Shown: one piece after another, positions 21,645 through 61,555 of the stretch
Numbering within the stretch: the first letter of the stretch is position 1
How the letters are laid out: every line of letters starts with the position of its first letter
DNA from: a phage
Direction: 5' to 3' (one strand)
DNA: 64,000 bases
Sequence record: PZ445443.1
Made by a program: the position numbers and the translations under genes
Notes under the pieces: model-generated
Seen by the model: the letters and a program-made list of their open reading frames with translations, nothing else
The model's database searches: none
What the model was told of the DNA's origin: nothing

Positions 21645-21973
21645 TAGTCTTCCTCCAGGTTCAAAGGCCCTAAGATTTCATATGCCAGATTAGAAGTTAC
21701 CAGAGGGTCTTCTGCATCTTTAGTATTGTACCACCCGTGAATAACCAGAGTCCCACTTTGTTTCATGTCCAACTGGAACTCTTCTGCCGTTTCCTCATCC
21801 AGCTCCAAGATTTCCATGAGGTATTTGATGTTAGGAAGGTATGCAGCTGTTACAGTTCCCTCCACCAAACCTTCGGGCCAACCTACATCCGGATGACAAG
21901 TAGGAACCAAGTTGGTCAACTTAATGGTGTACGCTTTTTCTGCACGAGCCTTCAGTAACGGGTCAATCTTCAT
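21644..21973 (-). CDS. hypothetical acidic protein
   Basis: 109 aa; start overlaps upstream stop. Confidence 0.5.
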   Translation of the reverse strand: MKIDPLLKARAEKAYTIKLTNLVPTCHPDVGWPEGLVEGTVTAAYLPNIKYLMEILELDEETAEEFQLDMKQSGTLVIHGWYNTKDAEDPLVTSNLAYEILGPLNLEED

Positions 21974-22323
21974 TATTCGTCCTCCTCTTCGGTGCCTGCT
22001 TCCAGTAATAAGTTAAGAATATCTTCTGCACAAGGCTCATAGAACTCTTGGCCTTCATTATCGATGATTTTGTAGTCATCTCCGCGAATAATCAGAGGAT
22101 CACTCTCAAAATTATCGAGACCTTTAACAACGACAACACGATCGATTGCCATCATTGTAAGAACTTTATCGACATCTTCCTCTGCTACACCATACTGCAG
22201 CAGAATGTCTTTGGTAGGAGGAACAGCATCCACCACAACACCGTTACCAAAACCTTCCGGTAAGTTAGCTAAAATATCTTCCGGAACCACACTAACATCA
22301 AAACCAGTAATTTCTACTTTCAT
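21973..22323 (-). CDS. small acidic protein (MKVEI-start family)
   Basis: 116 aa, acidic tail. Confidence 0.5.
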   Translation of the reverse strand: MKVEITGFDVSVVPEDILANLPEGFGNGVVVDAVPPTKDILLQYGVAEEDVDKVLTMMAIDRVVVVKGLDNFESDPLIIRGDDYKIIDNEGQEFYEPCAEDILNLLLEAGTEEEDE

Positions 22324-22584
22324 TTACAGCACCTCTTCGTCAACTACTTCATAAAAATGGCCTGGGATTGCAATAGCGTTCTCACCTTCACCTACAAACA
22401 CAGTTCCGTCAAGAATCAACATCATAAGAGTTTCTGGAATATCCTCTTCCTGAACGTTGCCAAAACCTTTAATCAGCTCGTAGGTTGGAAGATTTACCTC
22501 TAAGATGTCACCATCTTTAGAGCGGAAATCAACACCATCCTGAATCTCTGCCATTTCAAGGTTTTTCAGTTTAATCTTCATCAA
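22324..22584 (-). CDS. small acidic protein (ends YEVVDEE)
   Basis: 86 aa; shares N- and C-terminal motifs with neighbours. Confidence 0.5.
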   Translation of the reverse strand: MMKIKLKNLEMAEIQDGVDFRSKDGDILEVNLPTYELIKGFGNVQEEDIPETLMMLILDGTVFVGEGENAIAIPGHFYEVVDEEVL

Positions 22585-22660: not shown

Positions 22661-23053
22661 TTACTGAAACAGTGCGGATAAATTACCTTCTGGTGGGAAC
22701 TTATCTGCCAAAAACGGTGTTAGCACAGTAGCCTTCTGAAGATCTGGGGTCCACTCGTTGTTCAGAACATCCCAGTAGTACGCAATGTTGCTGTGTGGGT
22801 GCCGCATTACGAACTTTTTCCCTTCGTAGTCATCTGAAACCTCTACAGAAGAAATGACAACAGAATCTTCAAGTTCTTCATAGAAAGATCCGCCTTCAAA
22901 TTTCCAACGAGATGCAAGAGCCCCTGCCTTGAACGCTGCAGATAACGGACTGTCGGCAAGAACATACATTTCTTGCACTCTGTCGCTGCGATCTTTGCTT
23001 CTTACGTTGTATACAGTATCTGAGCTATACTCAACACGGTATAGGCTTACCAT
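22661..23053 (-). CDS. hypothetical protein, paralog of 24860..25258
   Basis: Shared motifs HP.S...YW...W.TP and TP.L with 24860..25258. Confidence 0.55.
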   Translation of the reverse strand: MVSLYRVEYSSDTVYNVRSKDRSDRVQEMYVLADSPLSAAFKAGALASRWKFEGGSFYEELEDSVVISSVEVSDDYEGKKFVMRHPHSNIAYYWDVLNNEWTPDLQKATVLTPFLADKFPPEGNLSALFQ

Positions 23054-23385
23054 TACCGCACCTCCTCAATAACTTCCACATCTGAACCCACCACAAATGC
23101 AAAAGGACAGGTTTCATGAAAGACATCCGGATCGCCGCCAAGCTTGCTAACAATTTCTCCACCACTAATAAACACAAGCTCACCGATATTCATCAGATTG
23201 CTGAAATAGTATCCATAATGATTAAAGAATGCAGCAGGGTCAGGTAGACTAGTAGCCTCAAGCACTACATCGGTTGAGGTTACTTTCTTATCATAGCCTC
23301 TCGCCTTCTGAGATGCAAGATCTGCAGAATCCTCAGGCGACCGGAGATGCACAGGAATTGTTTCACCAATAAAGCGTACTTTCAT
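23053..23385 (-). CDS. small acidic protein family member
   Basis: Trimmed to MKVRFIGE start consistent with family N-termini; ends VEVIEEVR. Confidence 0.5.
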   Translation of the reverse strand: MKVRFIGETIPVHLRSPEDSADLASQKARGYDKKVTSTDVVLEATSLPDPAAFFNHYGYYFSNLMNIGELVFISGGEIVSKLGGDPDVFHETCPFAFVVGSDVEVIEEVR

Positions 23386-23389
23386 ATTA

Positions 23390-23653
23390 TCACCCAACAA
23401 CCATAGCTTCAAAAGGGGTCATGAACGAATAAACGGCATCATCATCTGCTTCAGGGAATGCTCCCAAAGACTTCATGTCAGATCCCTTGACAAATACAAG
23501 GTTTTGATCAAAGGCTTCTTGGGGATCAATCCGATACATATTTCGTAGAATATCTCCTACCTCCTCATCAAGAGGTGAGTATGCTGTGCACGTTTTTCCG
23601 ATCAAGCTTTGAGAATCAGGGTATCCACCTGAAGTTTTAAAATAAACAATCAT
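23390..23653 (-). CDS. small protein, VKG-DL-AGA motif family
   Basis: Motif VFVKGSDMKSLGA shared with 25271, 25515 and 29170 ORFs. Confidence 0.5.
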   Translation of the reverse strand: MIVYFKTSGGYPDSQSLIGKTCTAYSPLDEEVGDILRNMYRIDPQEAFDQNLVFVKGSDMKSLGAFPEADDDAVYSFMTPFEAMVVG

Positions 23654-24014: not shown

Positions 24015-24041
24015 TTAGAGGTCTCCTCAATTATTTGATAT

Positions 24042-24142
24042 TAATAGCCGTAACCTAACACATTAACTACAACTGCGATTGCAAACATAATTTCAAAGCA
24101 TGCAATCTCTACATTTGGGACTAATTTCTTAATCACGCCCAT
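24042..24142 (-). CDS. small membrane peptide (33 aa)
   Basis: ATG with GGAG/GAGGTG RBS; hydrophobic; not in ORF track. Confidence 0.3.
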
Positions 24143-24151
24143 TGTAGCACC

Positions 24152-24469
24152 TCATTCTCCAAAGTCAATCTTTACTTTGCCTTTCCCCTTACCTTTCTTT
24201 CCACCGCATTTAGCCAGCTGACGTGCTGCAACATCTACCATACGGTCAGTTGCCTCGTAAGCATCACTACCTTTAGCCTTGGCAATAACTTCTTTTCCAG
24301 AAGTGTCAAAAATGAACGCCATAACTTCCTGGTGATCATTTTCAACTTTTACACTTACACGTGCATGATTTACAGAAGGATGTAGACGCTCCAGTTTTGA
24401 CATTTTGTGGGAAATGAAAGACACCATGCCTTCGGTGATTTCTACGTTGCCAGTGATCTCAATTTGCAT
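24152..24469 (-). CDS. hpf: ribosome hibernation promoting factor / ribosome-associated inhibitor homolog with Lys/Gly-rich tail
   Basis: MQIEITGN-VEITE, KLE, VKVE and ARQLAK segments align with the bacterial HPF/YfiA family; C-terminal GGKKGKGKGKVK extension. Confidence 0.7.
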   Translation of the reverse strand: MQIEITGNVEITEGMVSFISHKMSKLERLHPSVNHARVSVKVENDHQEVMAFIFDTSGKEVIAKAKGSDAYEATDRMVDVAARQLAKCGGKKGKGKGKVKIDFGE

Positions 24470-24551
24470 AACGTGTTCCTTTTAAAGAAGAGGGAATAAC
24501 TCTCTCTTTGAAAACAATAATACTATAGCTGAAGCGTTGTGTCAACAGTTT

Positions 24552-24859: not shown

Positions 24860-25258
24860 TCAGTTTAGCTTTTCTTCAACAACCCCATAGCTCGGGGCAG
24901 AGTCAAGAGCTTTTTGGTTTAAAAGTGGTGTAGCAGAATCTGCAAACGGTGTCCAAGTTTTTGTTCTGGCATTCCAGTAATGCTTCACTCTGGAATCTGG
25001 ATGCACTATAACAAAAACTTTTTCACTTGTCAACACATTAATTTCTTCTACACCCTTGCTGATAATTTCTCCGTCATAGCCCCCAGTCTGGTATCCTTCG
25101 TACCAGGTTCTTGCATAGGCATAGCCAGCCTGCCAGCATGCAGCCTCCTCCGAGGTGGAGACTACGTAGAAGTCTTTCTCAAATTCTGGAATACGCCCTT
25201 GCTTTACGCTCCAAGCTCCGCGAATTTTCATTGTAACTTTAAACAGTTTATTTTTCAC
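24860..25258 (-). CDS. hypothetical protein, paralog of 22661..23053
   Basis: Shared motifs with 22661..23053. Confidence 0.55.
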   Translation of the reverse strand: MKNKLFKVTMKIRGAWSVKQGRIPEFEKDFYVVSTSEEAACWQAGYAYARTWYEGYQTGGYDGEIISKGVEEINVLTSEKVFVIVHPDSRVKHYWNARTKTWTPFADSATPLLNQKALDSAPSYGVVEEKLN

Positions 25259-25270
25259 AACGGTTACCCA

Positions 25271-25525
25271 TCACAGCTCTACAATATCTGCATCTGACCC
25301 TACCCCAAAGGCATAATAGGACTCTTCCCCGAAATAATATTCAGGTGCACCAGCGGTGATCAGGTCTGATCCCAAGATAAACACCACGTTGTGGCCTACA
25401 TAACTGTGATGTTGCCGCACAGGATCATCCCACGGCAACCCTTCAAAGTATACCGCAGGAACTACCTTTCCCTTCAGGAAGGATTGTCCCAAGTAGACGT
25501 TAGAATCAAGAATTTTAACCTTCAT
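25271..25525 (-). CDS. small protein, VKG-DL-AGA motif family
   Basis: MKVKILD start; motif ILGSDLITAGAPE. Confidence 0.5.
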   Translation of the reverse strand: MKVKILDSNVYLGQSFLKGKVVPAVYFEGLPWDDPVRQHHSYVGHNVVFILGSDLITAGAPEYYFGEESYYAFGVGSDADIVEL

Positions 25526-25742
25526 GATCGTCCTCCACTACCTCTACATCCTCGCCTAGGGCAAAGTTGTAGGTCCACTGACTGTCAAAGCAGTCCTGAG
25601 GTGCACCAGCGGCAATAAGATCTGCTCCTTTTATTTTTAAAAGGTCAGGGTAATCTTCGTTAGGGACAGCAGTAAACACTTTTCCTACTAAAGGCTCCTG
25701 ACCAATATAGAAGCTTGAATCTAAAACTTTAACTTTCATCAA
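25515..25742 (-). CDS. small protein, VKG-DL-AGA motif family
   Basis: MMKVKVLD start; motif IKGADLIAAGAPQ; ends EVVEDD. Confidence 0.5.
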   Translation of the reverse strand: MMKVKVLDSSFYIGQEPLVGKVFTAVPNEDYPDLLKIKGADLIAAGAPQDCFDSQWTYNFALGEDVEVVEDDHEG

Positions 25743-28639: not shown

Positions 28640-29173
28640 CTACAGATGGTTGCTGATGGTGTCAAGAAAATTATCTCGTTCTTTCTCGGAGTTTTCACGG
28701 GTGTAGCTGAAAAACATATCTAGAATAACCTTATTGATATATTCCAGCTCCTCTGTGTTCAGGTACTTAGCAGGATCTACAATGACATCCCAAATATCAT
28801 ACAGACCACACTCATGATATCCATAACGCCACTCAATTGTCAAGCTGAGCGGCAAATCTTTACCGTCACAAACAACCTTCCATCTACATATGTTGGTATC
28901 TGGGCGTATCTGTGCACGGTATACCTGTACAAAATCCAATTTGAATTTGAGGTATTCGTCATGCAATTTAAGCACAAAGCTCTCGATTTGTGGAGACACT
29001 TTTGCAGCAAACTGTGCGTATTTGTATTTGCACTGGATGATCTTTCTGCGTTTTGCAGTTAAATTTTTTGCCGCCAGTTGTTCTTCAGTGTATCTCCACC
29101 TACGATCAATAAACGCAACAGGGTCTTTGTCCCCATAGAGGTCTTCCCAGTTAATCAGAAGCATACCTGTCAC
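28640..29173 (-). CDS. hypothetical protein
   Basis: 177 aa ORF. Confidence 0.55.
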   Translation of the reverse strand: MTGMLLINWEDLYGDKDPVAFIDRRWRYTEEQLAAKNLTAKRRKIIQCKYKYAQFAAKVSPQIESFVLKLHDEYLKFKLDFVQVYRAQIRPDTNICRWKVVCDGKDLPLSLTIEWRYGYHECGLYDIWDVIVDPAKYLNTEELEYINKVILDMFFSYTRENSEKERDNFLDTISNHL

Positions 29174-29403
29174 TCCTCCACAACTTCAAGGCCTTTGCCG
29201 CCTCGCTCTGGCAGATTACTTAAAGACAGGTAATACGTATAGTCAGGAGAGATCCTGCCAGACTCTGCACCTGCAGCTAGTAAATCTTTTCCCTTAACCA
29301 TGACAGCATTATCGTTTGCAGATAGTCGTTTTGCTTCCACAATTTTACCAACGCAGTCAACCAAGGAAGGGTACCCTAAATCTGTAAGAAATTTAACTTT
29401 CAT
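29170..29403 (-). CDS. small protein, VKG-DL-AGA motif family
   Basis: MKVKFLTD start; motif VMVKGKDLLAAGAE; ends LEVVEE. Confidence 0.5.
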   Translation of the reverse strand: MKVKFLTDLGYPSLVDCVGKIVEAKRLSANDNAVMVKGKDLLAAGAESGRISPDYTYYLSLSNLPERGGKGLEVVEE

Positions 29404-60742: not shown

Positions 60743-60817
60743 GCCCTGTTAGCTTAGTGGATAAAGCAGCGGCCTTCTAAGCCGTTGACACTGGTTCGAG
60801 TCCAGTACGGGGTGCCA
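60743..60817 (+). tRNA. tRNA-Arg (anticodon TCT), CCA encoded
   Basis: Hand-folded cloverleaf: 7-bp acceptor stem (two G-U), anticodon loop CTTCTAA, T-loop TTCGAGT. Confidence 0.7.
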
Positions 60818-60821
60818 AATT

Positions 60822-60908
60822 GGGGAGTTATCCCGTAGAGGTAGCGGTGTAGACTGTAAATCTATTGTCATTGCGACTCGGGTGGTTCGACTCCACCACT
60901 CCCCACCA
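60822..60908 (+). tRNA. tRNA-Tyr (anticodon GTA), long variable arm, CCA encoded
   Basis: Perfect 7-bp acceptor stem GGGGAGT/ACTCCCC; anticodon loop CTGTAAA; T-loop TTCGACT; 87 nt. Confidence 0.7.
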
Positions 60909-61022
60909 AATTTATATTTTTAGATGCATAAATAATACAGATAATGGCATTGATATTTATCGTCGTTTATACTAGTCACTAACTGCTCGAAAATCAGTGT
61001 CATTATCAGTATAATTTATAAA

Positions 61023-61113
61023 GGAGGGTAGGGAGCAATGGTGCTCAAGCGGTCTTGAAAACCGTCCCGTTGAGGATGACTCGATGATGGTTCGATTCCA
61101 TTACTCTCCGCCA
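61023..61113 (+). tRNA. tRNA-Ser (anticodon TGA), long variable arm, CCA encoded
   Basis: Acceptor GGAGGGT/ACTCTCC; anticodon loop CTTGAAA; T-loop TTCGATT; 91 nt. Confidence 0.65.
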
Positions 61114-61211
61114 CATTGTTGACCTTGTAATTAAGCGAAAGTCGGAAGCAGAACCGGATTATCAAATGTTACAGTCGTCATCGCCGACTAGCAACATGGT
61201 CAACATACTGA

Positions 61212-61308
61212 GCTAGGTAAGCCCTTTGGCAAGGGCGAGGATTTTTAATCCTGAAAATAGACGAGGTAGTCGTTGAATACATAGGTGGTTCGATTCCATC
61301 ACCTAGCA
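61212..61308 (+). tRNA. atypical tRNA-like gene (possible UUU anticodon, oversized variable region, no encoded CCA)
   Basis: Perfect acceptor stem GCTAGGT/ACCTAGC and T-arm GGTGG-TTCGATT-CCATC; anticodon arm non-canonical (AGGA-TTTTTAA-TCCT); 29 nt between anticodon and T stems; 97 nt. Confidence 0.4.
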
Positions 61309-61315
61309 CCTTTTT

Positions 61316-61391
61316 GCTGATGTAGCACAATCGGTAGTGCAATTGATTTGTAATCAATAGGTTGTAGGTTCAAGTCCTGCCATCAGCACCA
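61316..61391 (+). tRNA. tRNA-Thr (anticodon TGT), CCA encoded
   Basis: Perfect acceptor stem GCTGATG/CATCAGC; anticodon stem ATTGA/TCAAT with loop TTTGTAA; T-loop TTCAAGT. Confidence 0.75.
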
Positions 61392-61392
61392 A

Positions 61393-61467
61393 GGCCCTGT
61401 AGCTGGAAGGTTCAAGCAAGCGACTCATAATCGCCAGACGGTGGTTCAATTCCACCCAGGGCCACCA
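61393..61467 (+). tRNA. tRNA-Met or tRNA-Ile2 (anticodon CAT), CCA encoded
   Basis: Perfect acceptor stem GGCCCTG/CAGGGCC; anticodon loop CTCATAA; T-loop TTCAATT. Confidence 0.7.
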
Positions 61468-61478
61468 AATAGTAAATA

Positions 61479-61555
61479 CTCCGCGTAGCTCAGCTTGGTA
61501 GAGCGCCTGATTTGGGATCAGGAGGTCGAGTGTTCGAATCACTCCGTGGAGACCA
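61479..61555 (+). tRNA. tRNA-Pro (anticodon TGG), CCA encoded
   Basis: Acceptor CTCCGCG/CGTGGAG; anticodon stem CCTGA/TCAGG with loop TTTGGGA; T-loop TTCGAAT. Confidence 0.7.

Follow-up and report, generated by a model that had tools for sequence, protein, structure and literature searches.

Phage-encoded hibernation-promoting factor (HPF) was described by Mizuno et al. 2019 (Nat Commun 10:752, PMC6375957), who assigned the protein ABI79209 of phage rV5 and four or five close relatives to this class. In that study, the rV5 protein was expressed from pBAD24 in E. coli NM522, high-salt sucrose gradients were used for the 70S and 100S ribosomes, and mass spectrometry was used for peptide detection (PMC6375957). 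The ribosome fractions contained no HPF peptides, and expression left 100S unchanged, yet the crude extract did contain the rV5 protein, its C-terminal peptide VKIDFGE included (PMC6375957). The authors named dissociation by salt and the wrong growth phase (exponential cells) as possible causes of the negative result, and proposed that viral HPF may compete with the host factor, preventing dimers (PMC6375957). The gene was later mentioned "as already described" by Mathieu et al. 2020. Our literature search for functional work after 2019 found the gene mentioned only in these two papers, and infection-stage data were not found. Other phage copies of small ribosome-binding proteins are the HPF-like AFC21633 of Cronobacter phage GAP32, the pelagiphage bS21, and phage bL12 (PMC6375957). 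These were acquired independently of the rV5-type protein. Unlike bS21 and bL12, the rV5-type protein was not found in purified ribosomes (PMC6375957).

For the E. coli factors HPF and YfiA (RaiA, protein Y), ribosome contacts are available from a cryo-EM preprint (10.1101/2025.10.07.680626). In HPF, K26 and Q29 contact nucleotides 1496-1498, H55 and E60 contact the C-terminus of uS9, T53 and H62/V62 contact m2G966, and K80, R83, K87, K89, and K91 of helix alpha2 contact 16S rRNA (10.1101/2025.10.07.680626). K80 is among four basic ribosome-contact residues that are identical in HPF and YfiA. YfiA is without K89, and R95/R96 of its tail contact 16S rRNA and uS7, with the tail running toward the RMF site (10.1101/2025.10.07.680626). 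The tail of RaiA is flexible, and RMF-mediated 100S formation is inhibited by RaiA (PMC13152769).

The DNA analyzed here, which we refer to as the window, is a stretch of 64,000 nucleotides from sequence record PZ445443.1. Its source is an rV5-like Vequintavirus, and the 3 kb surrounding the gene of interest were 97-98% identical to around 115 rV5-like genomes, which agrees with the phage origin assumed in a sequence-only reading of the window. The gene and its signals were arranged as follows, in coordinates of the window:

24152-24469, minus strand: coding sequence of the phage HPF homolog, from the ORF list; 105 aa plus stop, ATG start; ortholog of rV5 ORF144 / ABI79209
24209-24469, minus strand: HPF core segment; Pfam match at residues 3-88, AlphaFold2 pLDDT of about 80-95 at residues 1-90
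24155-24208, minus strand: C-terminal tail, residues 88-105, CGGKKGKGKGKVKIDFGE; net charge +4, residues 91-105 predicted to be disordered
24477-24481, minus strand: Shine-Dalgarno-like AAGGA, read from the sequence, 7 nt upstream of the ATG
24517-24545, minus strand: putative sigma70-type promoter TTGACA-17-TATTAT from a promoter scan, with 11 of 12 consensus matches; the ATG follows about 48 nt downstream

The translation of the minus-strand ORF, MQIEITGNVEITEGMVSFISHKMSKLERLHPSVNHARVSVKVENDHQEVMAFIFDTSGKEVIAKAKGSDAYEATDRMVDVAARQLAKCGGKKGKGKGKVKIDFGE, begins with MQIEITGNVEITEGMVSF and ends with ARQLAKCGGKKGKGKGKVKIDFGE, and the ORF list contained no overlapping ORF of at least 40 aa on the plus strand opposite 24152-24469. 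The promoter element at 24517-24545 is the promoter P144 annotated in the rV5 record DQ832317, and in phage Murica an RBS is annotated at the place equivalent to the AAGGA at 24477-24481. Since this promoter is of the host sigma70 type and close to consensus, it suggests that the HPF gene is transcribed early by the host RNA polymerase. Having its own promoter, the gene looks like a self-contained accessory cassette. Directly after it lies a 33-aa hydrophobic ORF, MGVIKKLVPNVEIACFEIMFAIAVVVNVLGYGY (24041-24142, minus strand), which corresponds to ORF145 in rV5, and a promoter-like TTGACT-16-TACAAT with an upstream TG was seen at 24168-24141, within the 3′ end of the HPF gene.

The gene is the same as that encoding rV5 gp144 (ORF144), with which it shares the length of 105 aa, the tail, the position, and the upstream promoter. 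The two proteins have 97% amino acid identity and are set apart by the substitutions V33A, H35Y, and T56N. More broadly, the window protein was 94-100% identical to the gene product in 117 rV5-like records, and about 118 of the roughly 120 records bearing the region have the gene. The original rV5 record labels ORF144 as a "sigma 54 modulation factor", and later records use HPF, RaiA, or ribosome hibernation factor. The gene, its assignment to the HPF family, and the first obvious experiment are already known, both from the literature and from more than 100 GenBank records. Since all three had been published, our finding adds no discovery.

Some annotation entries deserve mention in their own right. 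In four records (OR062525, OR062530, MT884008, and MT884010), the gene carries the label "ATP-dependent protease La type I". The record of APCEc02 (KR698074) places the "sigma 54 modulation factor" label on a neighboring gene, and RefSeq uses the name RaiA, yet the HPF model scores far higher than the RaiA model. Furthermore, 18 "UNVERIFIED: Campylobacter phage" records (MG0656xx, e.g., MG065647.1 42360-43274) were around 97% identical to the region and are classified as Vequintavirus; their Campylobacter host label looks doubtful.

The sequence-only reading had aligned the ORF by eye with bacterial HPF/YfiA along its length, and the similarity was borne out by profile, sequence, and fold searches. 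In the PDB sequence search, residues 1-89 were matched to residues 1-89 of E. coli HPF (2rql, 4v8h, 6h4n) with E = 1.5e-12, and V. cholerae HPF was likewise among the best solved relatives. The motifs that had been quoted in support (MQIEITGN-VEITE, KLE, VKVE, and ARQLAK) were all found, and the quoted tail GGKKGKGKGKVK corresponds to residues 89-100. Pfam PF02482 (Ribosomal_S30AE) covered residues 3-88 (E = 4.4e-13) and, at 50.2 bits, exceeded its gathering score of 23.7. TIGR00741, the HPF/YfiA family of NCBIfam, was likewise above its cutoff of 40.9 with 50 bits. The best-scoring model was the short-HPF equivalog NF007780 (YhbH type) with 57.5 bits, which is under its cutoff of 125 and hence not at ortholog level, while the YfiA/RaiA equivalog NF007654 reached 20.3 bits, under a cutoff of 158. 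Among the PHROG families, the rV5-type protein has its own entry, PHROG 12469, and PHROG 8990, which holds other phage S30AE proteins, was matched only at 9e-7. Pfam, NCBIfam, PHROG, PDB, and fold searches all returned HPF/YfiA. The sequence-only reading would have been refuted by profile searches without S30AE/HPF similarity, and this outcome did not occur.

The AlphaFold2 model had a mean pLDDT of 83, with values below 50 for residues 91-105. Its predicted elements (E2-7, H13-29, E33-43, E46-55, E60-67, and H70-89) follow an order that fits the HPF/YfiA superfamily. In a Foldseek search against the PDB, the top 36 matches were all HPF/YfiA/pY, with TM scores of up to 0.93. The predicted model had an rmsd of 1.0-1.1 Å to V. 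cholerae and E. coli HPF, and its core superposed at 1.1 Å on the E. coli HPF of the 100S structure 6h4n. Sequence identity was 40-44% to E. coli HPF (residues 1-87) and 21% to YfiA. A C-terminal dimerization domain of the long-HPF type was absent from the 105-aa protein, in which PF02482 was the sole Pfam domain and the tail was predicted to be disordered. Since the Pfam, NCBIfam, PDB sequence, and predicted-structure fold searches agree on HPF/YfiA, the homology is secure, and there is hardly any doubt that the ORF product is an HPF-family homolog. It is a single-domain protein of the S30AE fold whose core is closest to the enterobacterial short HPF (YhbH).

The positions named in the cryo-EM preprint were located in the phage protein, and the residues there were set against those of 34 diverse members of the family. 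Equivalents of contact residues were kept in the window protein at K25, R28, E60, I62, R83, Q84, K87, and K91. Across the phage lineage, including a relative of 64% identity, K22, K25, R28, E43, D69, Y71, D75, R83, and K87 were invariant, and Q84 and K91 were retained by the window protein and the rV5 group but not by the 64% relative. Three contact positions that are usually basic differed in every phage copy, as follows:

E. coli R17: V16 in the phage protein; R, K, or H in 26 of 34 representatives
E. coli K80: V80 in the phage protein (T in the 64% relative); K or R in 30 of 34 representatives
E. coli K89: G89 in the phage protein (S in the 64% relative); K or R in 28 of 34 representatives

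In addition, the position of E. coli H55 is occupied by F54. Thus, the phage protein resembles E. coli short HPF in its fold and keeps the equivalents of K26, E60, R83, K87, and K91, but is without those of R17, H55, K80, and K89. Loss of the K80 contact could abolish binding and not merely weaken it.

The tail is a further difference from E. coli short HPF. After K87, the phage protein continues with the 18-residue Lys/Gly tail CGGKKGKGKGKVKIDFGE (net charge +4), whereas the E. coli tail, HKDKLKQH, has eight residues and a charge of +2. With YfiA, the phage protein shares the fold, an extended flexible C-terminal tail (predicted to be disordered in the phage protein), the lack of a lysine at position 89, and basic residues around 94-96; K94, K96, and K98 of the phage tail fall in the stretch of YfiA R95/R96. 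However, the phage tail has 18 residues against 27 in YfiA, its sequence is unrelated, and the acidic end of the YfiA tail is missing from it except for the terminal D/E.

Within the genus, the tail was identical in the rV5, MaxBurger, and IMG/VR copies and invariant in most copies, one of which had synonymous changes. In the 64% lineage, the tail YSKSKGIDKRTAKWDY (+3) has a similar length, charge, and aromatic-acidic end, and is without the Lys/Gly repeat. Two records had a ±1 indel in the G/A-rich run, giving a truncated tail ending in ...GKGKAK* in Murica (L007 540-600) and a frameshifted tail ending in ...GRKKGKGERQSKD* in APCEc02 (L008 540-606). Since the Lys/Gly pattern is not conserved in the 64% lineage and two records had altered tails, the exact tail sequence may matter little. 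The two frameshifts were also considered as signs that the tail is dispensable, and this was set aside, as they are indistinguishable from homopolymer sequencing errors; programmed frameshifting in the G/A run was rejected because both other frames stop within a few codons. A Lys/Gly tail was sought in other proteins as well. The word-indexed search gave the phage cluster only, and the exhaustive phmmer search found no such tail. Some bacterial HPFs carry Arg-rich tails. A seemingly strong match, P0006 (1160 aa, 9 stretches), was a repeat protein and was discarded as spurious. Apart from the tail, the 106-aa variants of MaxBurger and Murica have GNNVEIT as in E. coli HPF, where one codon is deleted in the window and in rV5.

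The explanation that we favor overall, by somewhat more than even chances, is an early-made, ribosome-binding phage HPF that is more YfiA-like than 100S-promoting. The protein would be made early by the host RNA polymerase and would bind the decoding channel (A/P sites) of vacant host 30S/70S ribosomes via K25, R28, E60, I62, R83, K87, and K91. Its core would do so minus the three usually basic contacts (E. coli R17, K80, and K89), with about six lysines gained in the flexible tail of 18 residues, which would be long enough to follow the YfiA/RaiA tail path toward uS7 and the RMF site. Idle ribosomes would then stay 70S monomers that are protected and can soon be used again, and the phage HPF would compete with 100S formation through host HPF and RMF. 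It is probable that the phage HPF still acts on the ribosome, like its relatives, by occupying the decoding channel of host ribosomes that are vacant. A YfiA-like or anti-100S direction of this action is a tentative proposal, drawn by analogy from the length and charge of the tail.

Because three basic contacts were lost and a lysine tail was added, the phage HPF is likely to bind less tightly through its core, in a more electrostatic and salt-sensitive manner. Such salt-sensitive, reversible binding would explain the negative high-salt result of Mizuno et al. 2019. A more elaborate proposal, which we regard as speculative and rather doubtful, is that of an anti-hibernation decoy. The HPF-shaped core would bind weakly and reversibly, the polylysine tail of YfiA length would lie on the RMF/anti-SD side, and expression would be driven early from a strong promoter, so that the ribosomes of slow-growing or stationary hosts would be kept as, or returned to, nuclease-protected, reusable 70S monomers. 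The sequence-only reading had suggested that a phage copy manipulates the ribosome pools of the host and had named rRNA binding by the tail as a point to test; both are only suggestions.

That reading had also named sucrose-gradient analysis after expression as a check, and the published result, obtained for the 97%-identical rV5 protein, was negative: stable ribosome association was not seen under high salt (PMC6375957). Ribosome binding of the phage HPF may have been lost, since phage HPF peptides were missing from the 70S/100S fractions despite the presence of the protein in the extract. The HPF fold would in that case have been recruited to other nucleic-acid or protein binding, e.g., of phage or host RNA via the lysine tail. 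The changed contact positions, V16, F54, V80, and G89, which are usually basic, are in line with such a recruitment, as is the isolation of the lineage. When 1.84 billion representatives were searched exhaustively with phmmer, the protein's own cluster (65% identity) was followed only by bacterial short HPFs with at most 44% identity and E values of at least 8e-8. However, most of the family-defining and contact positions were retained and did not vary within the phage lineage, the 64% relative included, and the negative experiment, which used stringent salt and exponential cells, was not conclusive to its authors (PMC6375957). We therefore consider a recruited fold that no longer serves the ribosome to be unlikely.

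A classical hibernation-promoting factor would either drive 70S ribosomes into 100S together with host RMF or block the A/P sites, so that host translation is shut off or ribosomes are parked during takeover. The preference of the core for short-HPF models, its 1.1 Å superposition on the E. coli HPF of 6h4n, and the absence of the YfiA tail sequence from the phage protein would all fit this role. The equivalog score of 57.5 bits is nevertheless far under 125, K80 and K89 are missing from the conserved basic contacts, and 100S formation was not discernibly affected when the rV5 protein was expressed, which also distinguishes it from E. coli HPF (PMC6375957). Moreover, a non-selective block of initiation would presumably hit phage mRNAs too. 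Consequently, a classical role appears quite improbable.

The history of the gene was traced beyond the cultured phages. Since the nearest bacterial short HPFs were at most 44% identical, the acquisition of the gene looks older than the "relatively recent" transfer proposed in 2019. When E. coli HPF was used as query against 50,697 phage records, 118 of the 129 records bearing a homolog belonged to Vequintavirus, and the rest were mostly short unannotated fragments; in IMG/VR, only two near-identical copies of the gene were found. A sister lineage was represented by uncultured contigs of up to 125 kb (Logan ERR6997038_58, ERR4623478_391, and SRR25571739_58736), which were syntenic with the window and matched cultured Vequintavirus across only 15-19% of 8.3 kb (megablast). 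Their HPF (P0004) was 64% identical and encoded at the same position, while the immediate neighbors were less conserved (43-58%). Retention at the same position in so divergent a lineage implies that the HPF gene predates the split and is maintained.

Between the window and rV5, the HPF gene had 15 synonymous and 3 non-synonymous changes (dN/dS of about 0.05), a substitution pattern that indicates strong purifying selection on the gene in a lytic phage. Synonymous sites were saturated against the 64% lineage (pS 0.80-0.85), so that dN/dS is undefined for that comparison. The idea of a host-derived passenger gene drifting without function, which could draw on the surrounding region of small accessory genes without assigned function and on the tail frameshifts in a few records, is already largely refuted and highly improbable given this dN/dS, the presence of the gene in about 118 of about 120 region-bearing records, its retention in place while the flanking genes diverged to 43-58% identity, and its own strong promoter and SD.

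The sequence-only reading had placed the gene inside a block of small paralogous proteins, and three paralog families were indeed found on both sides of it, all on the minus strand. Family A comprises 21973-22323 and 22324-22584, family B comprises 22661-23053 and 24860-25258, and family C comprises 23053-23412, 25271-25525, 25515-25742, and 29170-29403, giving the order C-C-B ... HPF ... C-B-A-A along the direction of transcription. Membership of the HPF gene in these families was tested, and it belongs to none of them. A Pfam search with ten neighboring ORFs, including the small paralogs, gave no match, and the neighbors consequently offer no contextual clue to the function of the HPF gene. 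Elsewhere in the window, a cluster of seven tRNA genes was predicted on the plus strand at 60743-61555. Six of them are Arg-tct, Tyr-gta, Ser-tga, Thr-tgt, Met-cat, and Pro-tgg; the remaining one, at 61212-61310, is an unusual call of 99 nt whose anticodon has four bases ("atcc") and to which no amino acid was assigned.

The new details that we add to the published gene are the lost contacts corresponding to K80, K89, and R17, the conserved basic tail, and strong purifying selection together with retention in a divergent sister lineage, as well as the isolation of the lineage (at most 44% identity to bacterial proteins) and the gene's own near-consensus sigma70 promoter. Phage copies of ribosome-associated proteins are among the few direct handles that phages have on host translation, and whether phages can grow in dormant bacteria is determined by ribosome hibernation. 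An HPF with which a phage adjusted hibernation would bear on phage therapy against stationary-phase E. coli. If the reading as an anti-hibernation decoy is true, rV5-like phages could replicate in nutrient-limited gut hosts, their typical isolation source.
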